Below are positions 1 through 10,755 of a DNA stretch of 10,755 nt, in pieces (the stretch's first letter is position 1; each line of letters starts with the position of its first letter). The DNA comes from Candidatus Bathyarchaeia archaeon. GTDB taxonomy: Archaea > Thermoproteota > Bathyarchaeia > Bathyarchaeales > Bathycorpusculaceae. A model generated the notes under the pieces. It was not told where the DNA came from. It saw nothing but the letters and a program-made list of their open reading frames with translations, and searched no databases. Made by a program: the position numbers and the translations under genes. The stretch covers positions 1-10,755 of the forward strand of contig JBBFKZ010000032.1 of the NCBI GenBank assembly GCA_037481775.1, read 5' to 3'.

Positions 1-288
1 GAACTCCTTGCCCTTTCTTATCTTTTCCTCATTCTCATGAAAAAGAGCGTTAAATGATGTTACCTCTTGGTAACCAGACTGCAAGTAGGCGTCAAATGAC
101 GATTGATGCTGCGCTATGTAAGCTGTGAACTCATCATCAGTCATGACCTGGTACCCTAGCGACTCAAAGTAAGGGACCGATTGATCGTCCGAAAAGTAAA
201 TCGACTCTTTAACCCATTCTAGCGGAGGGTTACCGCTTTTTTGCCTCTCTTCTGCCGACACTGAGGACCAAAGTTTAACTGCTCTCAT
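1..288 (-). CDS. Hypothetical phage protein, 3'-truncated at the window edge (not in the ORF track)
   Basis: ATG at 288, 14 nt after the stop of the 303..788 gene. My manual translation is open to base 1: MRAVKLWSSVSAEERQKSGNPPLEWVKESIYFSDDQSVPYFESLGYQVMTDDEFTAYIAQHQSSFDAYLQSGYQEVTSFNALFHENEEKIRKGKEF... Same strand as the operon. Confidence 0.75.
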   Translation of the reverse strand, partial: MRAVKLWSSVSAEERQKSGNPPLEWVKESIYFSDDQSVPYFESLGYQVMTDDEFTAYIAQHQSSFDAYLQSGYQEVTSFNALFHENEEKIRKGKEF

Positions 289-302
289 AAAAAACTCTTT
301 TG

Positions 303-788
303 TTATGTTACCGTGTTTAGCCAAAAAACACCAAATGGTCGATTAAATGAGCCTGATGCAACATAAACTTCTAACCGGCTCAATGCGGGCTGGGCTGGAA
401 GAGTTAATCCAACGGCCGCCACCTGAGTTTGTGCAGAAAAATTAATGGTAACAATAATGGTGTTCGTAGTTATGTTTCGTATGGCTATGCTACCAGTAGC
501 CGCAGCCGTTGCGCCGAAAGAATAAGCAACAATCCTTGACGCCTCAGGCAAAATGAGCGGTGCGACATTGGAGGCAAGGCCGGACCATATCTGAAGCCTT
601 ACATTTGCGTTTGTGTTACCGTTTCTACTGCAAAAAACCGGGTATCTGTCATTGTTTATAGAATCCTGCTTTGACTCGATAATCGCATTGAAAACATCTG
701 TCGAACTAATACCTGCAGCAATAGCCGCTGGGTTCGTAGCGTCAAAAGGCGTCTGAAAAGCGTCCTGAGTTCTTCCAAAAATAATCAT
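303..788 (-). CDS. Putative virion structural protein (fibre/spike-like, beta-rich C-terminal domain), 161 aa
   Basis: ATGA overlap with the stop of the upstream gene. N-terminal 'ISSTDVFNAIIE' resembles the (S/T)xVxxA(I/L)xE stalk motif of phage fibres. The remainder is A/T/S/V/I-rich with alternating beta pattern. Function is inferred. Confidence 0.7.
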   Translation of the reverse strand: MIIFGRTQDAFQTPFDATNPAAIAAGISSTDVFNAIIESKQDSINNDRYPVFCSRNGNTNANVRLQIWSGLASNVAPLILPEASRIVAYSFGATAAATGSIAIRNITTNTIIVTINFSAQTQVAAVGLTLPAQPALSRLEVYVASGSFNRPFGVFWLNTVT

Positions 789-1120
789 GATTGCCCGAAG
801 TTAATAATCACCTCATACTTAACCCCAGCGGTGTTACCCCTTAGTAACACTTGCTTTATATCATTTCCACTAGAATCTTTTTTCGGAATCCATCCTACAT
901 ACTCTCCGACAGCAAGCCCCATCCAATTAGCCCCGCCATTCAAGCTAAACTCAAGCCTTCTTGTGTTTGGTGATTGCTGTGGGCAGCGGATTAAAAAAGC
1001 GTCAATAGAACGAAAAGGCGAATTCGGGACAGGTATAGGTGTTACCCCGACAGTTCCACTATACTGTCGGGTTTCTCCTAGTTCATCCGTTGTTTCGAAT
1101 TCAGGGATTATGTCAGCCAT
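785..1120 (-). CDS. Hypothetical small beta-sandwich virion protein, 111 aa
   Basis: ATG preceded by GGTGG; overlaps the stop of the upstream gene. Motif LEFSLNGGANWMGLAVGEYV resembles a segment of the 3224..3577 protein. Confidence 0.75.
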   Translation of the reverse strand: MADIIPEFETTDELGETRQYSGTVGVTPIPVPNSPFRSIDAFLIRCPQQSPNTRRLEFSLNGGANWMGLAVGEYVGWIPKKDSSGNDIKQVLLRGNTAGVKYEVIINFGQS

Positions 1121-1532
1121 TTTCCACCGATAATGCAGTTATTGATAAGCTAGCCACATCGCCAGCGTATGGCACATGATACTGCCTATAAACTACCGTG
1201 AGAACATCTCCGCCGTTAAAAACTAACCCGTTAATGTGCGGCGAACCAATGTGTTTGCGAGAAGTTGATTGTCCAACAATAACCGACCAAGAAAAAACAC
1301 AAGTAGACCCACTAAACACAGTAAAAGTCGGTGTTATAGTAAATCCAGAAGGTAGCCCCATACTAAAGATGCTGGCATTTATGTTTACCACATAATATGG
1401 TGACGTTGAAGGCAAAGCAATATTGCTTGAAGTTGCACTATTAAAGGCCATCGAGGCCATGTTGATGCTCACTCTTGCGTAGAAGGCGTTATGGCTGAAA
1501 TAAGACTGTCGTCTTAGTCCTAATGTAGCCAT
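1113..1532 (-). CDS. Hypothetical beta-rich protein (member of the low-GC paralog cassette)
   Basis: ATG at 1532 in a TGATG overlap with the upstream stop (track start 1535 is TTG). S/T/V/F-rich; LVFNGGDVLTV matches the L-x-x-G-D-x-L segment of its neighbours. Confidence 0.7.
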   Translation of the reverse strand: MATLGLRRQSYFSHNAFYARVSINMASMAFNSATSSNIALPSTSPYYVVNINASIFSMGLPSGFTITPTFTVFSGSTCVFSWSVIVGQSTSRKHIGSPHINGLVFNGGDVLTVVYRQYHVPYAGDVASLSITALSVENG

Positions 1533-1861
1533 CAAGGAACCCCGAACAATGCACCAATGATACCAATGTTTATAACTCTGCCTGATTGGGCAGAACCGCT
1601 TGCTGCGACAGCTAAAGTTTCGTTTGCCTGAAGAAATAAGGATATCACGCCGTAAAAGTTTCTACTTTGAGAACCTATTGTTATTGATGATGTAAAAGAA
1701 TTTCCAGTAATGTAAATAAAAGCCGTTACCTTAGCGATGCGACTTGCTGGCACTGTATATGTTACCGAACGGTTAAATGATGAACTAGTTACCACAGAGT
1801 CAACATTGTAAATCGTTGAAACAAAAACCGTCTCTTTTGGTACATCAAAAAAAGTTGCCAA
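1532..1861 (-). CDS. Hypothetical beta-rich protein with YTVP motif (paralog cassette), 109 aa
   Basis: TTG start directly after the upstream TAA, preceded by GAAGGGGG. Contains YTVPASRIAKV and FLQANETL. Confidence 0.72.
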   Translation of the reverse strand: MATFFDVPKETVFVSTIYNVDSVVTSSSFNRSVTYTVPASRIAKVTAFIYITGNSFTSSITIGSQSRNFYGVISLFLQANETLAVAASGSAQSGRVINIGIIGALFGVP

Positions 1862-2299
1862 TTACGCCCCCTTCATCAAAAATCCATTTATCAAAATGCC
1901 TACCCTACCCCCGTTAGGTGCGCTATACGGACCTTGATAAACAAAATTGGCCGTAATGGTATCACCCGACCTTAAAAATAAATCGTCTGTTTTATAAAAG
2001 AAAGAATTAGTCATGTGGTAATTCTCTGTCCTAGAGTATGTATTGGAAAACAAAACGATGCCGTTTATTGATAGTTTATGCTGTGATGAGGAATTCGCAA
2101 GTGTATAGTAACTTAGGATATAATAAACAAAAGATACTGACAGAAAAGCATAATCGGCCGTATTTGGCACACTATAGTTTAGTTGTATGTTTGCTACATA
2201 TACACCACTTTGTAAGGAAGTAACCCCAGATGTGAAGCTATTTACTCGTCCGACGATTATTGGTTGTTGAAAAGCTTGCCCTGTATGGTAAATAGCCAT
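1862..2299 (-). CDS. Hypothetical beta-rich protein with YSVP motif (paralog cassette)
   Basis: ATG at 2299 in a TAATG overlap with the upstream stop (preferred over the track start at 2308). Contains NYSVPNTADYAFL, LSINGIVLF and FLRSGDTI. Confidence 0.72.
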   Translation of the reverse strand: MAIYHTGQAFQQPIIVGRVNSFTSGVTSLQSGVYVANIQLNYSVPNTADYAFLSVSFVYYILSYYTLANSSSQHKLSINGIVLFSNTYSRTENYHMTNSFFYKTDDLFLRSGDTITANFVYQGPYSAPNGGRVGILINGFLMKGA

Positions 2300-2643
2300 T
2301 AAAACCACTCCGATATATTAGCGAAAAAAAAATCCGTTGAGTTTTGGTCCGACGAAAAACTCATAGATTGTCCACCGCTTAGGGTTAACTGATTAACTAT
2401 TTTCACAGGACAGCTTTTCTCAATTAAAAAAATTTGGTATGCCCAAAAACTGTCGTCAAAAATCGTTATTCCATTCACTAAAACTGAAGTCCAACCCCCT
2501 ACTGCATTGCCCCATATGTCTATAAAAGCTACCCTACCAGAAGGCACTGTATAGTTTATGACAAAAGAACCACCTACTATAGAAGCAAAAATAGTGAAGC
2601 ACCTTCTTTCAGTTATTTTTTGGTAACTCTTTGAGTAAATCAT
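2299..2643 (-). CDS. Hypothetical beta-rich protein with YTVP motif (paralog cassette)
   Basis: ATG at 2643 lies 1 nt after the upstream TGA (alternative TTG start at 2655). Contains NYTVPSGRVAFI, VLVNGITIF and LTLSGGQSM. Confidence 0.72.
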   Translation of the reverse strand: MIYSKSYQKITERRCFTIFASIVGGSFVINYTVPSGRVAFIDIWGNAVGGWTSVLVNGITIFDDSFWAYQIFLIEKSCPVKIVNQLTLSGGQSMSFSSDQNSTDFFFANISEWF

Positions 2644-2644
2644 A

Positions 2645-3193
2645 TCATTCTGCAAACTCTAAGGCAGAAATGTTACCACGAAAGTCGCTAGCTTTTTGCA
2701 AGTTTTTAGCTCTCAAAGTAAGCTTTTGCGTCCCGGTAGCGCCGCTTGTTACCTCATACTCTCCACCATCCCAAGTGAAGGTGAATTGACCGGGACCAAC
2801 AAGGAATGAGCCAATGATTGTTGATACGGTGTCATTTTGCTGCACGATTTCAAAAATCGCCTCACGAAAGCATGAGCCCGTAGCCTTGATGCGGCCATAG
2901 GTCTTGTTTTGCGCTAAGGTAACCTCAGCAACGGTAACATTCGTTAAACTTCCAGGAACGGGCCCGTTACTTGATGCGCTTAAACTTACACCTGCGCCTT
3001 GAAGGTCAACGGGAAGCTTACCTTCTGGAGTAAGTGTGGGCAGGACAAGCTGTCCGCTGTGCGTTTTGAACGCAAAGCCAACAAGTCCAGTTTTTGCCGC
3101 CGCAGCATCCCCCGCTTGCGCCGCCGTTAACGCTCTCCCCTCGTCGGTAACCTCATCAACCAAAACCGGAAAAACTTCTCTTACATCTGCCAT
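2645..3193 (-). CDS. Probable abundant virion structural protein (candidate capsid decoration/cement protein), 182 aa
   Basis: Strong SD AAGGAGG; the 15-nt initiation region is identical to that of the major capsid gene. GC content resembles the capsid gene. Ala-rich N-terminal arm followed by a beta-rich domain. Confidence 0.8.
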   Translation of the reverse strand: MADVREVFPVLVDEVTDEGRALTAAQAGDAAAAKTGLVGFAFKTHSGQLVLPTLTPEGKLPVDLQGAGVSLSASSNGPVPGSLTNVTVAEVTLAQNKTYGRIKATGSCFREAIFEIVQQNDTVSTIIGSFLVGPGQFTFTWDGGEYEVTSGATGTQKLTLRAKNLQKASDFRGNISALEFAE

Positions 3194-3205
3194 AAAATCC
3201 TCCTT
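3191..3205 (-). promoter_or_regulatory. Ribosome-binding site plus start codon AAGGAGGATTTTATG (copy 2)
   Basis: Plus strand cataaaatcctcctt at 3191-3205 is identical to 4641-4655. Confidence 0.85.
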
Positions 3206-3206
3206 G

Positions 3207-3224
3207 ATTTTTTAGCTAAAAAAT
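3207..3224. repeat. 18-bp perfect palindrome ATTTTTTAGCTAAAAAAT
   Basis: Read directly; fills the gap between the stop of the 3224..3577 gene and the SD of the 2645..3193 gene. Low complexity. Confidence 0.6.
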
Positions 3225-3577
3225 TAAGATAACACCTCTATAGTAACACTGTTACCTTTACTAGAGTCAAAGTTTTTCAAAAAAAACGCACTGTCAAAAG
3301 TAACATCAACCCATCCACCAATACCAACCTTGGTCCACTCAACACCATCTCGTGAGTAACCCCAGCGAATAGCTTTCTGTGAAACTAACCTAAGCCTTTT
3401 TTGACTATTAGTAGTTATTGTTACCATCTCGTTTGGTAACATGGATAAATTATCTATTGACTCAACGCTTAACTGCTTTTGCGTAGAAACTACCTCAACC
3501 GCCGCCTCGTTTGGCCTAGTCGGAGAGCCAACAAACTTAGAAAACTCTAGGTCCTTAATGTTACTAGGCTTCCCCAT
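3224..3577 (-). CDS. Hypothetical small virion-associated protein
   Basis: SD GAGGT ahead of GTG(3580)/ATG(3577); overlaps the upstream gene. WGYSRDGVEWTKVGIGGWV resembles a segment of the 785..1120 protein. Confidence 0.72.
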   Translation of the reverse strand: MGKPSNIKDLEFSKFVGSPTRPNEAAVEVVSTQKQLSVESIDNLSMLPNEMVTITTNSQKRLRLVSQKAIRWGYSRDGVEWTKVGIGGWVDVTFDSAFFLKNFDSSKGNSVTIEVLS

Positions 3578-3782
3578 CACTAGACCTCAAATCGTTTTCT
3601 AAGGTGTCGTAGTAGAACGCTACCCAAAAAGAATCTTTGCCTTCAGTAACACGCTGGATTGAAAAATAATTTACAAAACCACCAAGTTTTATGTTGTTCT
3701 TCAAACAAGCAAGGCGAAGCCCCGCAAGGGACCTCGCCTTAATAAAGTTTGGAACCTTTCTTAAATCGTTTTCTAAAAACAC
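3564..3782 (-). CDS. Hypothetical protein immediately after the major capsid gene, 72 aa
   Basis: GTG start 15 nt after the capsid stop; fills the gap in the operon exactly. No clear SD. Confidence 0.65.
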   Translation of the reverse strand: MFLENDLRKVPNFIKARSLAGLRLACLKNNIKLGGFVNYFSIQRVTEGKDSFWVAFYYDTLENDLRSSDGEA

Positions 3783-3783
3783 G

Positions 3784-3798
3784 GTAACACTATGTTAC
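3784..3798. repeat. Inverted repeat GTAACA-CTA-TGTTAC made of two motif copies, filling the gap after the capsid gene
   Basis: Plus strand ggtaacactatgttac at 3783-3798. Confidence 0.6.
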
Positions 3799-4643
3799 TA
3801 TGTTCCGGACACTTTGGCAATTAAACCGGACTTACCACTCAATGTAAGTGTGCCTTGGTCAATTTGAAGAGCTTTAACGCCGAAAAGCTGGTCCATAGCT
3901 TCCAAAACGGCAGTGGTTCCATATTCAATAGCTGGTTGACTTGCATAGTTTGGTGCTTGCTGGAAGCCAATAGCTACCCCGCTTTTTTCCCACATGAATA
4001 TTTCATCGTTTTGCAAAGCGGAATGAACAATTACAGGCATTCCATACAAGCGGCCAATCACGCCCTGAGGAACTACGGCTTGGCCATACATATCCGCACG
4101 GCTAAACTCCGCTACTTGCAAAAGCTGAGCCTCCATTTCAGGGGATGCAACAATTACGCATTGGTCGAGCATAGCCTCATTGCGTCGCAAGAAAGAGCGT
4201 GCCTCTAAAATTTTATCGCGTAATGCGGTAGCGGTAGCAACGAAACCAGCGTTACCCTTCACTTCCGTGTATATTTGCGCATCGACATAGCGTCCATGAG
4301 CGGCAGCGGCACGGCGAGCAAACTCAATTCGAGCATCGACGCTTGTTTGGATTGCATCCGCACCATCAATCAACCAAGAAACATAAGCGTTGTGGTTGAG
4401 TGTCAATGTATCAAGCGATGCATTGAGCGATTGAGGAACGCCAGCGGTTGCGGAAGTTCGGTTTACTACCGTAAACGAAGTTAGCTTAGGAAAGCTAATC
4501 TGGCGAGCCCCTTTCACGGCAAAAGCCGAAACATCGGTAACATAAGCCGCGAGCACGGCATTATGCTTCAACTCTTTTTGAACTGCGGCAGCGATGATTT
4601 GCTGCTTGGTAACACTTAACTCGGTGTGGCCTGTAATTGGCAT
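3798..4643 (-). CDS. Major capsid protein (HK97 fold), 281 aa
   Basis: Follows the scaffold gene; strongest SD in the window. Typical capsid pattern: G-x-x-I-x-FP, TLTLN, IDxxDxIQT, AAAAHGRYVD, IVASPE...LL, GVIGRLYGMPVIVHSAL. Confidence 0.9.
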   Translation of the reverse strand: MPITGHTELSVTKQQIIAAAVQKELKHNAVLAAYVTDVSAFAVKGARQISFPKLTSFTVVNRTSATAGVPQSLNASLDTLTLNHNAYVSWLIDGADAIQTSVDARIEFARRAAAAHGRYVDAQIYTEVKGNAGFVATATALRDKILEARSFLRRNEAMLDQCVIVASPEMEAQLLQVAEFSRADMYGQAVVPQGVIGRLYGMPVIVHSALQNDEIFMWEKSGVAIGFQQAPNYASQPAIEYGTTAVLEAMDQLFGVKALQIDQGTLTLSGKSGLIAKVSGT

Positions 4644-4655
4644 AAAATCCTCCTT
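4641..4655 (-). promoter_or_regulatory. Ribosome-binding site plus start codon AAGGAGGATTTTATG (copy 1, capsid gene)
   Basis: Canonical SD AAGGAGG, 5 nt before the ATG. Confidence 0.85.
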
Positions 4656-4660
4656 ATTAT

Positions 4661-5275
4661 TTATTCTTTAATACTTTTAGCTAAAGCCCTAAGTTCATCC
4701 CAACTTAAGTCCTCTAGCTTTTTTGTTCCGACCATGGACGCATCGGTAACAAAAGGTGTGGCACTAGGAACTTGTGGCTTTTTTTGTTCGAAAAACCAAG
4801 GCTTCTCCTTGGCCAAAGCCTCAAGCTTCGCCTTTAGCTGCTGCTGATTGACGGTGAAATCCTCGGTAACCTCAATATCGGAAAAGTCAGCCACTCGCAA
4901 AACATCCTGCACGGCTTCCTTTCTAACACCGACATCTTGGGCCACCTGCTTGACCGATTCCTCAAAGACGCGGCGTGCAAAAGTCGAAACCACGTTATTC
5001 AAACGCTCGTCCTTTTCACGCAAGGTCTTCTCAAGTAACTCTGCCTTCTCCTTCCACCGTCCCTGCTCGGCTAAACGCTGCTGCTCTTCGGCTTCCTTTT
5101 GCGCCAAAAGTTCGTTCAGCTTAGCCTTTAACGCCTTTACCTCCCCTACCGCACGGCGGTAAGTATCGTAGGCCACAAAATCCTTTTTTTGCTCCTCTTG
5201 CCCCTTTTCTTCGGTAACAGCTCCGCTGGAGTCTGCTACTTGAGCCACTGGCTCGGTAACTTCGTTTTGCGCCAT
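4661..5275 (-). CDS. Capsid scaffolding protein, 204 aa
   Basis: Directly upstream of the capsid gene. Acidic disordered N-terminus, long E/K/Q/A coiled coil, 'LAKEKPWFF' followed by a Pro-rich linker and a short C-terminal helix. SD GGAGGGG. Confidence 0.8.
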   Translation of the reverse strand: MAQNEVTEPVAQVADSSGAVTEEKGQEEQKKDFVAYDTYRRAVGEVKALKAKLNELLAQKEAEEQQRLAEQGRWKEKAELLEKTLREKDERLNNVVSTFARRVFEESVKQVAQDVGVRKEAVQDVLRVADFSDIEVTEDFTVNQQQLKAKLEALAKEKPWFFEQKKPQVPSATPFVTDASMVGTKKLEDLSWDELRALAKSIKE

Positions 5276-5276
5276 G

Positions 5277-5834
5277 TTATCCCCTCCTTGTTAATTTTGA
5301 AATTGTTACCCTATAATAGTCAACTAATCGTTTGACAAGCTGTGATTGAAGCTTTTCTCTTATTCCAATAAACTGATACTTCTCATCCAGTATCCTAGAA
5401 AGCTCGTCATTGGTAACTTTGCTTTTTAGTGTTACCACGCCCTTTTTACCCTGATAGCGGTAAGGCCTACGGCTACCAGCAAATTGATAGGTAACCTCAA
5501 ATGAGGATACACCATTTCCTCGTATCTTGTAGGATAAAGAATCCAAAAGCTGTCCACTTAAACTAATATTCGACTTTTTGGGAGTAACATATGAAGGCGC
5601 GCCTTGAAATGATATGATTTTTTCTCTCGTTTCAATCCACCTTTCGGTCAAAGGCTTTAGACGCTTTCCAGTAACAACGCTTTTACCAGAACGGGTAACC
5701 CCCCTTATATCATCAACAACCGCCTGCGCTAGCTCGTTTTTGAAACCGCTATCCTTGACCACCTGCTCCACCGCACGCCTTGCAGCATCTGACAATCGCT
5801 TAATGGCGGAAGTATCAAATTCAACTTTGAACAT
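5277..5834 (-). CDS. Putative virion morphogenesis/neck protein (Mu gpG or HK97 gp10-like), 185 aa
   Basis: Basic protein with GKRLKPLTERWIETR and NISLSGQLLDSL (compare LxxTGxLxxSI), ending in FIGI. Lies in the head module. Confidence 0.6.
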   Translation of the reverse strand: MFKVEFDTSAIKRLSDAARRAVEQVVKDSGFKNELAQAVVDDIRGVTRSGKSVVTGKRLKPLTERWIETREKIISFQGAPSYVTPKKSNISLSGQLLDSLSYKIRGNGVSSFEVTYQFAGSRRPYRYQGKKGVVTLKSKVTNDELSRILDEKYQFIGIREKLQSQLVKRLVDYYRVTISKLTRRG

Positions 5835-5843
5835 ATCATTATT

Positions 5844-6449
5844 TCACTTGATGAGCTTCACAAGCTTTTTAAGGCTTTGCAACTCACCTAAAACCTTCAG
5901 CGCATCCTTTGGGCTTGGTAACCTTGCAGTGTCATCCGAAAAAGACCTTTGAACCTCTTGATTTTTTTCTGCCGTTTCTTGCTCAATCAGAGAACGAAAC
6001 CTTCTGGCTACTTTTTCGAACTCGTCCTTGGTAACACCAAAAAAAGGACGAACAGGAAGAGGCCCCTCACCATACTGGCCCGTTTGGTGGCCGTGAGCCT
6101 TTGGCGCATTCTCATCATTGATGCTAAGCATCGGTAACCCATCACTACTCACCCCAATATCGATTGAGCGCATCATGTCGCCAGTAAGCCTCATGTTTAC
6201 CGGCCTTGGCTTTTTGCCATAGGCCTTAAAATCCGCTGAATTTTGGTAGCCCTTCGAGTAAACATTCGGAGAGAACGGTTCGTTACCAAGGCCCCTGCCC
6301 TTTGAAACCCGCTTTTCAATATACTCACGCAATGCGTAGGCTATTTCATAAGCCGTATCACGGCTAACACTGCCGCCTATCCACGCCTTCGGAATAACTT
6401 GCGTCAACTCCTCTTCGGTAACCTTGAGGCCTAACTTCTTATCGCGCAT
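5844..6449 (-). CDS. Phage virion morphogenesis protein (Mu gpG/P2 gpS-like), 201 aa
   Basis: Family signature segments VNMRLTGDMMRSI, KAHGHQTG and PLPVRPFFGV. Overlaps the portal stop. Confidence 0.72.
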   Translation of the reverse strand: MRDKKLGLKVTEEELTQVIPKAWIGGSVSRDTAYEIAYALREYIEKRVSKGRGLGNEPFSPNVYSKGYQNSADFKAYGKKPRPVNMRLTGDMMRSIDIGVSSDGLPMLSINDENAPKAHGHQTGQYGEGPLPVRPFFGVTKDEFEKVARRFRSLIEQETAEKNQEVQRSFSDDTARLPSPKDALKVLGELQSLKKLVKLIK

Positions 6450-7737
6450 CTGGTAGCCCTCTTAATACCTCGTCAAGGATACGCCTTGCCTCCTGCTCTC
6501 CTACCCCACGATAACGCATGATGGCTTCTGCGTCTGTGATTAGGCCAGCCTCTTTTTCCTTCATAATTAGTTCTAATTTGTCATGCTCGGTCATAACGGA
6601 ATCTGGTTTTTGAAACTCAATAACCATTCTAGCTTCATTGCTAATTGCTCCAGTGACAATGCCTAGGTTACTAGCCTTCTCCAGTAGCACATAAAACAAA
6701 TTCTCCTCAGCTTTTTTGAACACGCTAAAGTCGGACTCGGAGGCCTCGAACCTGTCAATCATTGCAAGCAATCGGTCCATGCCGGACGCGTACTCAGACG
6801 ATACCCCTTGTGTGTTAATTGCTTTGGGGTTTAGACCTCGCGACGTGAGGAATGCTGAAAGCGTTGAACGTAAAAATTCAAGTGATCCAGCTAGGTCTGG
6901 ACTTGGATTTGCGAAGCCAAATTCAGTATCAACCGGATTGTTTGGGTCTACTGGTAACAATAAAATGCTATTCGGACCAATTTTTAAGTTTTCAGGCAAC
7001 AGATTGCGTGGCCCCTTCAAGTATGCTTGAGCAAATCCTTGCATCCTAACAATGTTAGCTACATCGCTTAGCAAAGCGTTAAATTGAATCGTAAAATCGG
7101 TAACACTCAATCCACCTTGTGGCCAGTAGCTGTCCGAAAAAGGCTTTTTGATCGGGATGATTGGGAGCGTGAACGGCTCGTCGGTAGCAATTAAGTTCTG
7201 GGTAACCTCACCGTCCTTGTCGTAAGTCCTAATATATGACGGCGCATACTCAATCCATCCTTCGCCGTAGCGCATAATGTATGACCTAGCAACAGATGCA
7301 TCCAATGGGTCTATGGTAACATGAAGCTGATGCGCTTTTAGCGGTAACACTCGCAAGCCTTGCTCATCCTCTTTCACGAATAAATGAGTTATACCTTGAA
7401 GTTTGAAGTAGCGGTTGGCTTCGGCCATCACATCATTGACAAAAAGCGAATCGTAAAGCTTTAACATGGCCTCTGCCTGCACCTCACTTAAGCCGTTAAA
7501 ACTTCGGCGTGGGGCCTTTCGATAGATTGAAGCCTCGGTGTCCACTATGCGCCTGGCAAGATTGACGCAAGTAAGCAAAGGCACATCCTCAATCGTTCTT
7601 TTTGAATAAAAGCGGCTTAGGTAACCTTTGACATGAGGCTCCAAGTTTTCGTTGTAAATATCGAACTGCGCCTTTGATACCTTAATGCGCTGCGCCTCAT
7701 CTAAAGAGGCCAGTAACTCTTTCAAGCTATTCATCAT
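6439..7737 (-). CDS. Portal protein (possibly SPP1 gp6-like), 432 aa
   Basis: Directly follows the terminase large subunit. Size and helical character fit. Segments NLARRIVD, ASGMD and GLITDAEAIMRY resemble SPP1-type portals. SD AAGGAG/GGGGG. Confidence 0.82.
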   Translation of the reverse strand: MMNSLKELLASLDEAQRIKVSKAQFDIYNENLEPHVKGYLSRFYSKRTIEDVPLLTCVNLARRIVDTEASIYRKAPRRSFNGLSEVQAEAMLKLYDSLFVNDVMAEANRYFKLQGITHLFVKEDEQGLRVLPLKAHQLHVTIDPLDASVARSYIMRYGEGWIEYAPSYIRTYDKDGEVTQNLIATDEPFTLPIIPIKKPFSDSYWPQGGLSVTDFTIQFNALLSDVANIVRMQGFAQAYLKGPRNLLPENLKIGPNSILLLPVDPNNPVDTEFGFANPSPDLAGSLEFLRSTLSAFLTSRGLNPKAINTQGVSSEYASGMDRLLAMIDRFEASESDFSVFKKAEENLFYVLLEKASNLGIVTGAISNEARMVIEFQKPDSVMTEHDKLELIMKEKEAGLITDAEAIMRYRGVGEQEARRILDEVLRGLPDAR

Positions 7738-7766
7738 ATCCCCCGCTCCTTGGGTTTTTTAATGAA

Positions 7767-9140
7767 TTATAGGGTAACACTTCTTAGCGGGCTAGCTCCT
7801 TTTTGATTGTGAAGGTAGCATATCCAATATCCAAGTGCCGTGGTGATATGCTGATACTCTTTAGAGTCATCCTCCACATAAGATGCTCCGTCCTTCAATG
7901 CAGTTAGCTTCAAACCTCGGATAAGCATTTTTGCATTGCTACCAATAAGGACTCGCCTTCGGCCTTGAGCATTCAAAAGGTAGCTATTCACTATATTGTG
8001 TCGTTCTTTTATCGGCGGATTAGACCTTGGCACGCAAAGTTCAAAGGTTAGTTTGTGCGAAATTCTGCCAAGGTAGCTAGCTATTATATCATAGTCGCTG
8101 TGAAGTGACTTAGTAGATCTAGCCGCTCCAGTAGCATCACCAAAAACTCGGACATGAACCCTTCCTCCATTTTTGGGTTCAAAATAACCTCTGCCTTCTA
8201 ACTCCTGCATCATGTCTTGTGTTGACAAACTTTGAATTGTTACCGAGTCGATAACACGAAACAAGTCCATTCTTTCATCATACTGCCCAATAACAACACT
8301 CATTGGCTTTCCAACGCCAATGTTAAAGTCAAAGCTTACATCAAGCGGCAAGTGTGGCAAAAGCTCGACTTTTTCGGTAACATTTTCTTTTTCGCTAAAG
8401 CAATAATAGATTGCATTGTTGTCGCGTCCTATCCATTCCCCGTCTAAGTAACGACGGGCAGAGATGGGGTCTAAATCATTTCTTAGCTGTTCAACATAAC
8501 CAGCTGGTAAAAACGGGTTATCCTCTGGTTTTGAATAAAAAACAAAGCGTGTCGGATGCGGTTGCGGCTCAATGAAATAGCGATATAGCCAATGGTCCGG
8601 AGAGTCCGGATTGGTAGCAACCACAAGAAAGTTTTCTTTAATCACTGGCCGCCTTCTCAAGCGAGCCTTAAGTTCCAAGAAAGCCTCAAAATCATCTTCG
8701 TTATTTTCTGCACCTTCCTCAATAATTACACCGCTTAACTTTAGCGACCTAATTTTTTTATACTGCTTATCAGCCCAAGTAACAGGACCGATGCGTGAAT
8801 CAGTGTGAGGGAACCAAATTATTTGGGATGATTTATTATAGATATAATGCTTGCCAGGCGTAAGCGGCGCAAGGTGGTCGATTATCTCTTGAATAAGAGT
8901 TCTTTTCAAGTCCGGAAGCGTTCTTCGACACACTGCGACTAATGCTCTGCGATTAAATAAGCAATGCGTCACCGCTAGATGAGCTAGCAGCGTTGATTTA
9001 GCTGAGCCGTAGCCACCACTAAGCAAAATTTCTGGGTAAGTTCCGCTGTCCCAGTCCCATTTTTTTCTGAGTAACTCAAGAACTCTTGCTTGATAAGGTA
9101 TCTTGTATGGGTCAAAGGTTGTAAGGTGAACTGGCTCCAT
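7767..9140 (-). CDS. terL: Terminase large subunit, 457 aa
   Basis: Walker A SGGYGSAKST, Walker B GVIIEE, coupling motif ATNP, DNPFL...YVEQL...RYLDGEW, nuclease SFDFN and GDATG, and C-terminal HITTALGY. Confidence 0.95.
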   Translation of the reverse strand: MEPVHLTTFDPYKIPYQARVLELLRKKWDWDSGTYPEILLSGGYGSAKSTLLAHLAVTHCLFNRRALVAVCRRTLPDLKRTLIQEIIDHLAPLTPGKHYIYNKSSQIIWFPHTDSRIGPVTWADKQYKKIRSLKLSGVIIEEGAENNEDDFEAFLELKARLRRRPVIKENFLVVATNPDSPDHWLYRYFIEPQPHPTRFVFYSKPEDNPFLPAGYVEQLRNDLDPISARRYLDGEWIGRDNNAIYYCFSEKENVTEKVELLPHLPLDVSFDFNIGVGKPMSVVIGQYDERMDLFRVIDSVTIQSLSTQDMMQELEGRGYFEPKNGGRVHVRVFGDATGAARSTKSLHSDYDIIASYLGRISHKLTFELCVPRSNPPIKERHNIVNSYLLNAQGRRRVLIGSNAKMLIRGLKLTALKDGASYVEDDSKEYQHITTALGYWICYLHNQKGASPLRSVTL

Positions 9141-9146
9141 GTTACC

Positions 9147-9356
9147 TTATGTTACCAATCGCCCACCATTGTTACCGTGCGCTTGTGCTGCAAACGCTTG
9201 CGCTATTGCATACTTAATATCATTTAAGCTTTCTTTAACAAGCCACTTGTTACCGTCAAAGTAAGCGACAAGACCTAAGTCAGTTTCCTCAAGTAAAACG
9301 GTCATAACATTAACAAACAAAGCCCTACCGTCTTGTTTAGTTAACTGCAAAAACAT
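9147..9356 (-). CDS. Small FlbD/SwrD-like protein, 69 aa
   Basis: SD GGAG. MFLQLTKQDGRALFVN...LEET...DGNKWLVKESLNDI follows the FlbD-family pattern as I recall it (MIxLTxxxGxxFxLN...IExTP...GxKxxVKESxxEV). Confidence 0.6.
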   Translation of the reverse strand: MFLQLTKQDGRALFVNVMTVLLEETDLGLVAYFDGNKWLVKESLNDIKYAIAQAFAAQAHGNNGGRLVT

Positions 9357-9359
9357 AAT

Positions 9360-9851
9360 CTACTCTCCATTTTGGGTTTTGCTTTCTTCCTTTTTTTCTT
9401 CATCTTTTTTTTCTGCGTCACTGTCCTTTAGGCGGTAACCTAGGAAAAACTGATAATTACCGTCATCGGCTTTAAACTCGACGCGGTCGGCCATTCCTAA
9501 TGTGTTTTTAGCAAGAAAAATTTGGGCCTTCAAGTCATTATCTTCTAAAGCTTTTCTCCAAAGCTGGCGTCGCAGGCTAATTTTTCCTTGGCCTTGGTAA
9601 CGCTCGGATAGTTCTTTGAATTGCGCACCTAAGTGCTCGACGCAGAACTTTTCCACCGTTTCTGTGGTAACCTCAAAAAAAGCTGCGACTTCATAGATTG
9701 TGCAGTGTATATGAAGTAACCTTTTTAAGTTTTCTGCCCCAGTCGCTGGATCAATTGAGTTTCGTCTTTTTCTGATTTTTCCCGACTTTGTGACAAAAAC
9801 GCCGTAGTCCGGAATTTCAAAGTTTGGATTTCTTATCGACTTGTAACCCAT
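9360..9851 (-). CDS. terS: Terminase small subunit, 163 aa
   Basis: HTH-like CTIYEVAAFFEVTTETVEKFC, then GKISLRRQLWRKA...AQIFLAKNTLGMAD typical of TerS. Located upstream of terL. Confidence 0.8.
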   Translation of the reverse strand: MGYKSIRNPNFEIPDYGVFVTKSGKIRKRRNSIDPATGAENLKRLLHIHCTIYEVAAFFEVTTETVEKFCVEHLGAQFKELSERYQGQGKISLRRQLWRKALEDNDLKAQIFLAKNTLGMADRVEFKADDGNYQFFLGYRLKDSDAEKKDEEKKEESKTQNGE

Positions 9852-9878
9852 GCAGTAACCGCCACTGGCTAGGTTAGC

Positions 9879-9899
9879 GTTACCACCACCGATGGTAAC
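9879..9899. repeat. Inverted repeat GTTACCA-N7-TGGTAAC at the predicted 5' end of the late transcript
   Basis: Read directly: gttacca ccaccga tggtaac. Confidence 0.7.
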
Positions 9900-9905
9900 A
9901 AAAAA

Positions 9906-9934
9906 ATGTTAACATAAGTTTTTTATGCCGTCAA
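9906..9934 (-). promoter_or_regulatory. Sigma70-type promoter TTGACG-N17-TAACAT with extended -10 (TGn), facing terS
   Basis: Minus strand TTGACG GCATAAAAAACTTATGT TAACAT: -35 matches 5/6, spacer is 17 nt, -10 matches 4/6 keeping the key T,A,T, and TG precedes it. Sits in the only sizeable intergenic gap (9852-9937). Predicted +1 near 9899. Confidence 0.7.
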
Positions 9935-9937
9935 GCT

Positions 9938-10755
9938 CTAAGTAACCTTTAACACCTCACCGTTGGGACCTGCCCTAAACTTCTCGCCTGTAAAGCAATC
10001 GTAAGCTCCAATTGCATATAATTTTTTGATTTCATCCCGAGGCTCTACCTTAGCCATCCTGCGAACTATCCACTCCTCACGGTAACAAGAGTCGATTTCT
10101 TCTTGTGAGTCTTTTTTTAGGTGCTCTTTGTTACCCTTTTTTTGCGACGATGCAAACCGACGAAACTTGAAAATTTCTGCACCTTTCGGAAGCATCTGCT
10201 CAATGCCATCAAAAGGATAACAGGTAAGAATAAATGAGCCGCTTGATTTATCTAAAGTTTCACAAAGGTTCCTAAAATCCTCTTTTGTGTATCCCGAATA
10301 GTGCCCTTGTTCGGTTTCTGGGTACGGAGGGTCACAAAAAAAGAATGTTTGCGGTGAGTCCCAGTTTTTTATGAAACTTAAAGCGTCTAGGTTGTCGACA
10401 TAAACACCGCGAAGTCGAGCGGCAAATGGTAACAAATCAATTGAAGGTGAGTTTGATATTGCATGATTTACACCATAAACACTAAAACCCCAACCAGAGA
10501 ATAACTTTGCAGCAAAACTCACCCTTATATTCACAAAAAATGCCCAAGCCGCCTCGACCTCATCCGCAGAATTAAAATCATTTTTCATTATTGTTTTTGT
10601 CAAACCATACTCACTTCGCGAATATGGCGTGAGCAGCACTCTTCTAGCCAGCTCATAACTCTTAACCTCGTCTTTTAGCACTCGAAAAAAATTGACTAAC
10701 CACTCGTTAGTGTCGTTGATAGCTTCTCTATAGTTACCGCGGTCTTTTACAGATG
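9938..10755 (-). CDS. DNA N6-adenine methyltransferase, Dam/D12 class; 5'-truncated at the window edge
   Basis: Catalytic FFFCDPPY preceded by RLRGVYVDNLDALSFIKNWDSPQT. The frame stays open beyond the track start at 10681 and reads ...YREAINDTNEWLVNFFRVLK, the Dam-family INDxN..LVNF..VL segment. The SAM-binding motif I would lie outside the window. Confidence 0.9.
   Translation of the reverse strand, partial: SVKDRGNYREAINDTNEWLVNFFRVLKDEVKSYELARRVLLTPYSRSEYGLTKTIMKNDFNSADEVEAAWAFFVNIRVSFAAKLFSGWGFSVYGVNHAISNSPSIDLLPFAARLRGVYVDNLDALSFIKNWDSPQTFFFCDPPYPETEQGHYSGYTKEDFRNLCETLDKSSGSFILTCYPFDGIEQMLPKGAEIFKFRRFASSQKKGNKEHLKKDSQEEIDSCYREEWIVRRMAKVEPRDEIKKLYAIGAYDCFTGEKFRAGPNGEVLKVT

Follow-up and report, generated by a model that had tools for sequence, protein, structure and literature searches.

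What does it mean when one short, non-palindromic word recurs on both strands of a phage genome, inside its genes and between them? The question is raised by contig JBBFKZ010000032.1 of the Candidatus Bathyarchaeia assembly GCA_037481775.1 (1.82 Mb, 54 contigs; bin G000), which we analysed over its full length of 10,755 nucleotides (contig C32, hereafter the window). An initial annotation had pointed to an excess of the hexamer GGTAAC and had read it as an iterated layer of information in phage DNA beyond codon pairs. Here, we find that the excess is real, restricted to phage DNA, independent of reading frame and strand, and recurring in a second lineage, which includes the complete 31,878-bp genome G203. 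This core interpretation is upheld, as within the assembly only the phage contigs show the excess, which withstands synonymous shuffling, is found again in relatives and goes along with conserved synonymous sites. The window is one of eight contigs of a single phage genome, referred to below as the window phage.

The window holds 60 copies of GGTAAC or its complement GTTACC (35 on the plus and 25 on the minus strand), and every coordinate and strand given for them by the initial annotation proved exact. Dinucleotide-preserving shuffles led us to expect 4.06 ± 2.12 copies (200 shuffles, largest 11; none reached 60). By count, GGTAAC is second only to AAAAAA among the hexamers of the window, and in the phage contigs together (33.7 kb) it tops the over-represented hexamers by a wide margin, with 183 copies versus 12.5 expected under a first-order Markov model (14.7-fold, z = 48). 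The hexamers that rank next in excess are overlaps of GGTAAC itself. The base following GGTAAC in the window is A in 36 and C in 14 copies, as claimed, and the sister word GGTAAG/CTTACC is rare, at 4 + 2 = 6 copies where about five had been counted.

The identity of the word had to be amended. While the iterated excess of GGTAAC stands, GGTAAC alone is too narrow a description, and the true word is RGTAAC(A), with R a purine. In the phage DNA, GTAAC is preceded by G in 183 cases, A in 74, C in 5 and T in 11, and the base after it is A in 141 of 273. RGTAAC occurs 81 times in the window versus 9.39 ± 3.04 expected (200 shuffles, largest 20). Its density across the eight phage contigs is 5.4-7.8 per kb, that of GGTAAC alone 2.9-8.0 per kb. 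Among the one-letter neighbours of the word, GGTAGC and GGTATC are enriched in the window phage and most others are at or below expectation. A longer hidden motif was considered and rejected, as the flanks beyond -1 and +1 carry no information. The 10-mer GGTAACCTCA, with six copies in the window (at 2918, 3146, 4865, 5490, 7201 and 9666) and one further copy on C47, was rejected as such a motif as well: its six window copies all read Glu-Val-Thr on the coding strand, and it has no copy in G203.

Could the word be a by-product of selection on translation or on proteins, such as a preferred dipeptide or codon pair? The majority of the coding GGTAAC copies in the window, 33 of 55, read Val-Thr, and Val-Thr is the most over-represented dipeptide (44 versus 15.8 expected). 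Yet 41 of these 44 are spelled GTT-ACC, GTT-ACT or G|GTA-ACN, three spellings whose sole common element is the DNA word. The loss of the excess in a synonymous-codon shuffle had been named beforehand as a possible refutation. With a shuffle that keeps each protein and its per-gene codon usage, the latter inflated by the word itself, the excess stays: coding sequence holds 57 GGTAAC versus 17.3 ± 3.3 after shuffling (maximum 28 in 1000 shuffles). Shuffling codon order leaves 6.1 copies, and over all eight phage contigs RGTAAC occurs 224 times versus 78.8 ± 7.0 after synonymous shuffling.

Neither is the excess limited to one frame or to the coding strand, by which, together with its survival of the synonymous shuffle, we reject a codon-pair or dipeptide bias. 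All genes of the window form an uninterrupted array on the minus strand, while the word lies on both strands. Each of the five stop-free combinations of frame and orientation of RGTAAC beats all 300 synonymous shuffles, which holds for the window, the phage as a whole and G203 alike; the sixth reading is blocked by a TAA stop in one frame. Because this stop removes one frame, copies in the window are split 52:29 (about 3:2) between the strands. The less common readings of GGTAAC were as claimed, with Gly-Asn at 229, Gly-Tyr-Gln at 69 and x-Leu-Pro at 5917, 6953 and 7343. The word also occurs between genes, as the initial annotation had noted: 5 of the 60 GGTAAC copies touch intergenic DNA, and six RGTAAC copies touch the 198 intergenic bases of the window. 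In G203, RGTAAC is even denser in intergenic than in genic DNA (8.2 versus 6.3 per kb). The assertion that the word is not one codon-pair habit was thus borne out by the enrichment of five frame and strand classes and by intergenic DNA at least as rich as genes.

The word has altered the phage proteins, as seen in their excess of Val-Thr. In the large terminase subunit (TerL), the window's clade carries Val-Thr at sites where relatives have Met-Ser, Met-Thr, Ile-Ser or Ile-Cys.

Is the word a property of the host rather than of the phage? GGTAAC reaches 5.6 per kb in the window and 0.0-0.64 per kb in 44 other contigs of the bin, and it is 15.8 times as frequent in the phage as in the rest of the bin. 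In the bin it occurs at 1.25 times expectation and is unskewed (227 versus 231 on the G-rich strand), in a skew test whose power is limited because GC skew is weak (mean 0.027). Forty relatives of the bin, from the same genus up to the same order, have 0.1-0.45 copies per kb. A host-wide excess had also been named beforehand as a possible refutation; as the rest of the assembly and the 40 relatives are poor in the word, we reject a host signature, with the host known from binning only. Within the assembly, the excess is restricted to the phage contigs.

These contigs, dense in GGTAAC, are C32, C38, C40, C41, C43, C45, C47 and C51, and sum to 33.7 kb. Judged from motif density, the phage genes encoded and the 77-nt overlaps that link several of them end to end (C51-C32-C43 and C38-C40), all eight are parts of one phage genome of ~34 kb that was split by the assembler. 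By its gene content, the window itself is the head-packaging module, in which PHROGs assigned TerL, portal, scaffold and major head protein. The dense contigs also encode tail proteins, an endolysin-type amidase, Erf and a PD-(D/E)XK exonuclease (both on C45), RusA, RNase H and a regulator pair. The phage is a small siphovirus that probably packages by the headful. The features of the window are:

59..10738, both strands: the RGTAAC set, 81 copies (60 GGTAAC and 21 AGTAAC; 52 plus, 29 minus), one per 133 bp over the whole contig.
1078..2513, no strand assigned: a low-motif module with 3.5 RGTAAC per kb (8.2 per kb outside it; post hoc Poisson P 0.024) and a GC content of 0.39 (0.44 outside it).
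3798..4643, minus strand: predicted major head protein (PHROG 267, E 5e-24), 73% identical to the G203 protein.
4661..5275, minus strand: predicted head scaffolding protein (PHROG 4866).
6439..7737, minus strand: predicted portal protein (PHROG 533), with homologues in 71 related loci.
7767..9140, minus strand: predicted large terminase TerL of the PBSX / Terminase_3 type (PHROG 2, E 1e-37), whose homologues carry PF04466/PF03237.
9141..9176, minus strand: three GGTAAC in 36 nt, a cluster tighter than any other in the window, which lies immediately before the start codon of TerL and between the terminase genes.
9360..9851, minus strand: probable small terminase subunit, from its position upstream of TerL and its homology to the gene upstream of TerL in relatives.
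9938..10753, minus strand: C-terminal 271 amino acids of a predicted divergent D12-class N6-adenine DNA methyltransferase with a DPPY motif (PHROG 56; PF02086).

The small terminase candidate has no PHROG, Pfam or NCBIfam match; its homologues lie at 10239-10685 in G203 and in 22 related loci. Contigs ~90% identical to the window, from sequencing runs labelled as hot-spring and aquatic metagenomes, skip positions 1078-2513, and two of them join across the gap. The segment looks like a recently exchanged module in which the word has not yet been filled in.

More than 1000 short contig pieces of the window phage, at 90-99% identity, were present in run X2, so that its genome may have been fragmented in assembly by strong microdiversity. 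No RNA run was among those listed for the phage. Two small contigs of the bin, C52 (1,079 bp, with a DUF499 fragment) and C54 (557 bp), have intermediate GGTAAC densities of 1.9 and 3.6 per kb and were left out of every phage count. No junction between phage and cellular DNA was found among the bin contigs, and only three 18-mers are common to the phage contigs and other contigs of the bin, in a script that was not looking for arrays of clustered regularly interspaced short palindromic repeats (CRISPR). The host is therefore assigned by binning only.

Related phages were sought mainly with TerL. A megablast search of the window against GenBank phages returned nothing, and tblastn with TerL returned 1001 records of GenBank phages, all below 60% identity (best, 28.5%). 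A single-protein scan of IMG/VR gave no confirmed relative, and 200 genomes of the bin's family held one weak TerL match (26%). Protein searches retrieved TerL homologues at 96, 70, 70 and ~62% identity (P0001-P0004) and many at ~45-56%. The four closest contain 7, 4, 7 and 5 Val-Thr versus a mean of 1.46 in 111 more distant homologues, a hint, judged solely from these TerL counts, that their phages share the word.

An alignment of 30 TerL homologues was then used to retrieve 175 related loci (80 of 429 from IMG/VR, 15 from the genome collection and 80 of 338 from metagenomes, with some duplicates between collections). Only two of them are rich in RGTAAC, namely L020 (8.5 per kb) and L022, which is part of G203 (206 copies, 6.5 per kb). 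None of the 15 genome-collection loci and none of the 80 of 338 metagenome loci is motif-rich, the maximum among the latter being 1.69 per kb. The check whether related phages have the motif in common thus returned two distant relatives rich in the word. Their TerL proteins are 92% identical to each other and form a clade distinct from that of the window (55% identity); nearer TerL relatives of the two, L021 (73%) and L103 (68%), lack the word.

The second lineage repeats the pattern of the first. G203 contains 181 RGTAAC versus 66.0 ± 6.3 after synonymous shuffling, and 100 Val-Thr versus 39.4 expected. The graded profile of the window phage and of G203 is similar, with respective enrichments of 14.7- and 8.9-fold for GGTAAC, 4.6- and 5.9-fold for AGTAAC, 4.0- and 2.6-fold for GGTAGC, and 2.0- and 1.8-fold for GGTATC. 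Of the 34 window sites in six shared genes, only 6 align column for column with a site of G203; it is the property, not the individual sites, that was inherited or re-acquired.

Other over-represented words came to light on the way. An IMG/VR scan for three close GGTAAC copies yielded at least 118 stretches; among the 80 listed, the 14 records that were counted whole were each polar and in frame, or not enriched. One of them, G242 (the 53.8-kb IMG/VR record of locus L345), has 119 GGTAAC on one strand versus 8 on the other, with many distances divisible by three. Its excess is a coding-level Gly-Asn or repeat effect, and such polar, in-frame cases speak for the coding explanation discussed above. 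L205 (IMG/VR, 20.9 kb), found via the G203 methyltransferase, has 41 CCGCTC versus 6.3 expected, and 24 of its 27 GAGCGGG lie on one strand. Its word contains AGCGG, which we take to be the Chi sequence of Bacillus subtilis, and the GAGCGGG/AGCGGG excess may be a Chi-type enrichment in the phage of a Firmicute. Further polar excesses of the Chi kind were seen in the relatives L099, L076 and L043. As the polar cases L205 and G242 were recognised, our tests do separate the polar from the non-polar kind.

The TerL relatives L092 and L094 (44% identity) have 22 CCGCAC versus 1.6 expected in 13.1 kb, in both orientations, and are also enriched in GGTACC (12 versus 1.2). These loci may harbour a second non-polar asymmetric word in this phage family; a D12 methyltransferase was not found in them (record 64% complete). 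L130 (IMG/VR, 10.6 kb; found via the window methyltransferase, 31% identity) has 15 ACGTTC versus 1.3 expected in both orientations, and L299 (metagenome locus, 17.2 kb) has 26 copies of the palindrome TGGCCA versus 2.1. Searches of the Creative Commons-licensed literature of PubMed Central and bioRxiv (subscription journals uncovered) brought up no account of GGTAAC or RGTAAC enrichment, or of a comparable non-polar excess, in a phage; matches to the word itself were primers.

Are the sites maintained? The two motif-rich relatives L020 and L022 align over 8,071 columns at 71% DNA identity. Of the motif hexamers, 30 of 68 and 30 of 57 are matched letter for letter in the partner, about twice the 20-21% seen for neighbouring hexamers (binomial P 1e-5 and 5e-8), a comparison that included hexamers in the same codon phase; in 35 cases a motif hexamer is still a motif in the partner. 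Codons for the same amino acid are identical in 54 of 73 cases if their third base lies in a motif, versus 841 of 1,538 elsewhere (Fisher P 0.001), and amino-acid identity at and away from motifs is similar (73% versus 68%). As synonymous positions are better kept at similar amino-acid identity, it is the DNA word itself that is conserved. Motif sites, synonymous positions included, are thus under purifying constraint.

In G203, RGTAAC occurs 94 times on the plus and 112 times on the minus strand without a polarity switch, with 8-16 copies in every 2-kb bin. Spacing is more even than random (coefficient of variation, CV, 0.80 versus 0.99; 0 of 2000 simulations as low), the variance/mean ratio in 1-kb bins is 0.42, and very short and very long gaps are both in deficit. 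Spacing is significantly even on C38 as well, and the CV of RGTAAC spacing over the whole window phage is 0.86. Clustering of sites was rejected, as GGTAAC spacing in the window is indistinguishable from random (CV 0.985). The best explanation in our view is that RGTAAC is selected at the level of double-stranded DNA, irrespective of orientation, and maintained at about one copy per 130-155 bp along the chromosome.

What might read the word? We tentatively propose, at somewhat less than even odds, that RGTAAC is a dense self-mark recognised by a phage factor, and the leading candidate is the D12-class methyltransferase. No other enzyme with sequence-specific action on DNA is predicted for the window phage. 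The Pfam match of the methyltransferase (PF02086) scores 28.1 bits versus a cut-off of 22. The gene is cut between C32 and C43, with its N-terminal ~88 amino acids at C43:4-192 and a 77-nt overlap between the contigs. A D12-class gene is present in both motif-rich phages with enough sequence (the window phage and G203) and, above the Pfam cut-off, in 2 of 20 motif-poor relatives, 15 of which are at least 90% complete. Against the Dam family model TIGR00571 of NCBIfam, scores are 26, 40 and 33 bits versus a cut-off of 114.85, which places the proteins among D12 superfamily members outside the Dam subfamily. With scores so far below the cut-off, an ordinary GATC Dam is not to be expected, and another target is plausible. 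An asymmetric 6-bp word with a degenerate purine is a typical recognition form of methyltransferases, as known from restriction-modification specificities. No nuclease partner was recognised, so that the methyltransferase looks like an orphan.

In the model that we propose, a phage-borne sequence-specific DNA activity would read RGTAAC across the whole phage chromosome. This activity could be the phage's own divergent N6-adenine methyltransferase of the Dam superfamily, which would methylate an adenine of the word. The dense mark would then distinguish phage DNA from cellular DNA, where the word is ~10-15 times rarer. A mark with a purely local effect would favour many, fairly evenly spaced copies. 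It might serve in protection against nucleases, in modification or coating of the DNA, in selective packaging, or in sparing phage DNA from a nuclease that the phage itself unleashes.

Several observations weigh against this proposal. The methyltransferases of the window phage and G203 are alike only around DPPY, for which reason a shared specificity of the two enzymes is not expected. None of 97 other viral loci that encode the nearest homologues of the two enzymes (at most 36% and 47% identity, respectively) is rich in RGTAAC, including G225, whose enzyme is 38% identical to that of G203. Nothing ties the candidate methyltransferase to RGTAAC, and its presence alone leaves the enrichment of a target unexplained. 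The association of 2 of 2 versus 2 of 20 comes from two related lineages. A protein exclusive to the motif-rich phages did not emerge: the non-structural set that they have in common consists of RusA and a PHROG 11527 protein, both of which also occur in motif-poor relatives. The evenness of RGTAAC spacing in the window itself is not significant (CV 0.91, P 0.26).

Solved structures gave no match for the window methyltransferase and a weak match of the G203 enzyme to T4 Dam (E 0.009), and known homologues of the two are too remote for a specificity to be carried over. On the minus strand of G203 (L101, 3519-4959), the D12 methyltransferase gene shares its first 8 nt with a gene whose protein has a ParB-like N-terminal domain of the nuclease type, a gene pair that corresponds to a split form of the ParB-methyltransferase fusions in PHROG 498. 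A ParB_N domain was not found on the contigs of the window phage. The recombination genes of G203 encode a RecT-like protein and an exonuclease.

How does RGTAAC compare with hyper-abundant words that are already understood? The initial annotation had named the highly iterated palindrome HIP1, uptake sequences, and Chi or the FtsK-orienting polar sequences (KOPS) as parallels. Of these, Chi and KOPS are excluded by the lack of polarity and an uptake signal by the lack of an excess in the binned host, while HIP1 and uptake sequences stand as the best evolutionary analogies. Uptake signal sequences and DNA uptake sequences (USS/DUS) are, like RGTAAC, short asymmetric words that are hugely over-represented, in both orientations and in several frames within genes. 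They are 9-12 bp long, occur about once per kb in the chromosomes of competent bacteria and are read by the uptake machinery; RGTAAC, in contrast, is a word of 6-7 bp at ~7.6 per kb that is confined to phages, and the excess throughout the host chromosome that marks uptake sequences is absent from the bin (assigned by binning only) and from its relatives. According to Findlay & Redfield (2009), uptake sequences roughly double the peptides they encode, lie at residues of low conservation and are scarce in newly gained genes. In its evolutionary behaviour, RGTAAC most closely resembles these sequences.

In Elhai (2015), cyanobacterial high-frequency words are described as accompanied by an orphan methyltransferase specific for the word; one-letter deviations from HIP are treated there as informative, and methylation is proposed to create or maintain the sites. 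HIP1 is also called quasi-periodic in a 2026 paper. RGTAAC shares with HIP the hyper-abundance alongside an orphan methyltransferase, and its even spacing in G203 is reminiscent of the quasi-periodicity so reported for HIP1. HIP words, however, are GC-rich palindromic octamers of cellular chromosomes that are tied to GATC and CGATCG methylation, whereas RGTAAC is a non-palindromic phage hexamer (complement GTTACY) in two lineages whose candidate methyltransferases are very different. RGTAAC belongs to neither the uptake-sequence nor the HIP family.

Chi is likewise a short asymmetric word that can be over-represented in phage genomes, to the advantage of the phage. According to Bobay et al. 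(2013), Chi of lambdoid phages is polar, concentrated between origin and packaging site, typical of phages without a recombinase and mirrors an excess in the host, where it is also skewed. RGTAAC is non-polar and uniform, is not enriched in the bin, and occurs in phages that bear recombinases; with no polarity in G203 (94/112) and a 52/29 ratio in the window that stems from the TAA frame, Chi and KOPS were rejected, as neither strand polarity, nor an excess or skew in the bin, nor a recombinase-lacking phage was found.

The words of bacteriophage exclusion (BREX), type III and type IIS/IIG systems, such as GGTAAG of E. coli BREX, are asymmetric 6-bp words for adenine methylation. RGTAAC is like them in its six bases, its lack of a palindrome, the adenines near its 3' end and its one degenerate position. 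To our knowledge, these words are not enriched in the genomes that carry them, and a BREX, type III or nuclease partner was not seen on the phage contigs.

It is unlikely, though to be taken seriously, that the word spreads by molecular drive without any benefit to the phage, some step being biased towards word-bearing DNA. Such a step could be methylation-dependent short-patch repair of near-matches, as in Elhai's model for HIP1, or a bias of packaging or recombination in favour of word-bearing segments in mixed infections, of the sort proposed for uptake sequences. Several features recall what Findlay & Redfield (2009) report for uptake sequences: Val-Thr is raised 2.5-2.8-fold here, cf. the roughly doubled peptides there; sites lie at poorly conserved residues, as in our TerL comparison; and the module at 1078-2513 is word-poor, like recently acquired genes. 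As with HIP words, the genome has an orphan methyltransferase, and the phages encode their own recombination genes (Erf or RecT, PD-(D/E)XK exonuclease, RusA). In the window phage, several one-letter neighbours of the word are depleted to 0.3-0.5 of expectation; yet the depletion is not at one position, as a single mismatch-repair rule needs, and is nearly absent from G203. Pure drive does not predict the even spacing in G203, and no Vsr-like gene was recognised on these phages. We also know of no deamination-repair route for N6-methyladenine like that of 5-methylcytosine, which we count against drive. Conservation of synonymous sites fits selection, yet persistent drive gives the same and the two are not discriminated by it.

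We judge it distinctly improbable that a phage protein without enzymatic activity binds at the word, either the small terminase, with RGTAAC as a dispersed packaging signal, or a protein that coats or condenses the DNA. A word that is orientation-independent, genome-wide and rather evenly spaced would suit this function, and the graded tolerance GGTAAC > AGTAAC > GGTAGC > GGTATC, the same in two lineages, resembles a binding-energy profile. The small terminase is one of the few DNA-binding proteins common to both motif-rich phages, although homologues at a similar distance occur in motif-poor relatives (L021, 36%; compare G203, 33%). The tightest cluster (9141-9176) lies between the terminase genes of the window and 9001-10000 is among its densest RGTAAC stretches, but the small-terminase gene of G203 is itself lowest in density, with one site. 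TerL is of the PBSX type, which is usually a headful packager, and host DNA is 10-15 times poorer in the word; we know, however, of no tailed phage with dispersed packaging signals. The ParB-like protein next to the G203 methyltransferase would be a further candidate, but is not matched by a ParB_N domain in the window phage.

Even less probable, in our estimate, is a role for the word with a host factor, such as that of a Chi-like site by which a nuclease of the RecBCD/AddAB type is restrained, the true host not being the bin. The contigs are tied to the bin by binning only, and phages over-represent host Chi according to Bobay et al. (2013); among the loci studied here, L205 with its polar GAGCGGG shows an excess of the Chi type. 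Permuted genome ends, as suggested by the 77-nt terminal overlap of G203, would need protection in both orientations everywhere. Against this explanation stand the lack of polarity, whereas phage Chi is described by Bobay et al. (2013) as concentrated between origin and packaging site, and the recombinase and exonuclease of both motif-rich phages, a class that is reported in that paper to avoid Chi. The near-expected, unskewed occurrence of the word in the bin and its scarcity in the 40 relatives likewise argue against it.

That RGTAAC is a preferred start site of a primase, used on both strands at short intervals, is very improbable. Phage primases with template preferences of 3-5 nt are established, both orientations are in use, spacing is regular, and an RNase H gene adjoins the methyltransferase. 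Six to seven fixed bases are nevertheless beyond known primase specificity, and Okazaki priming would be served by roughly a tenth of the density seen, one site per 130 bp. A primase, helicase or polymerase was recognised neither on the contigs of the window phage nor among the early genes of the complete G203 (Pfam, PHROGs, NCBIfam; several proteins unannotated).

Least credible of all is a coding bias or an assembly artefact, readings that were put to the test and not supported, since the word is enriched in all usable frames, between genes and on both strands of a one-way gene array, and the contigs have intact reading frames with homologues and the property recurs in independent assemblies.

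Hyper-abundant words are rare visible cases of a second code above the genes. The well-studied ones, namely uptake sequences, HIP1, Chi and KOPS, all belong to cells, have a density of around one per kb, and show polarity, a palindrome or a tie to transformation. In the present case, the word is found in a virus of 32-34 kb at ~7 per kb, with a measurable cost to proteins, constrained synonymous sites and no known reader. A hexamer that lacks polarity and still stands out after synonymous shuffling is a simple signature to compute, and lends itself to screens of viral databases. If the word spreads by drive, these phages would offer a compact system for studying how drives reshape proteins. 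It is conceivable, though doubtful, that RGTAAC is the address of a hitherto undescribed system by which phages mark their own DNA, with a phage-borne reader or writer of a word that selection holds at intervals of ~130-150 bp on both strands. Such a system would be to viruses what uptake sequences and HIP1 are to cells, ten times as dense and strong enough to reshape the proteome through Val-Thr. Should the proposed self-mark prove true, it would represent a new way for phages to tell their own DNA from that of the host, with bearing on defence and counter-defence, packaging specificity and transduction.

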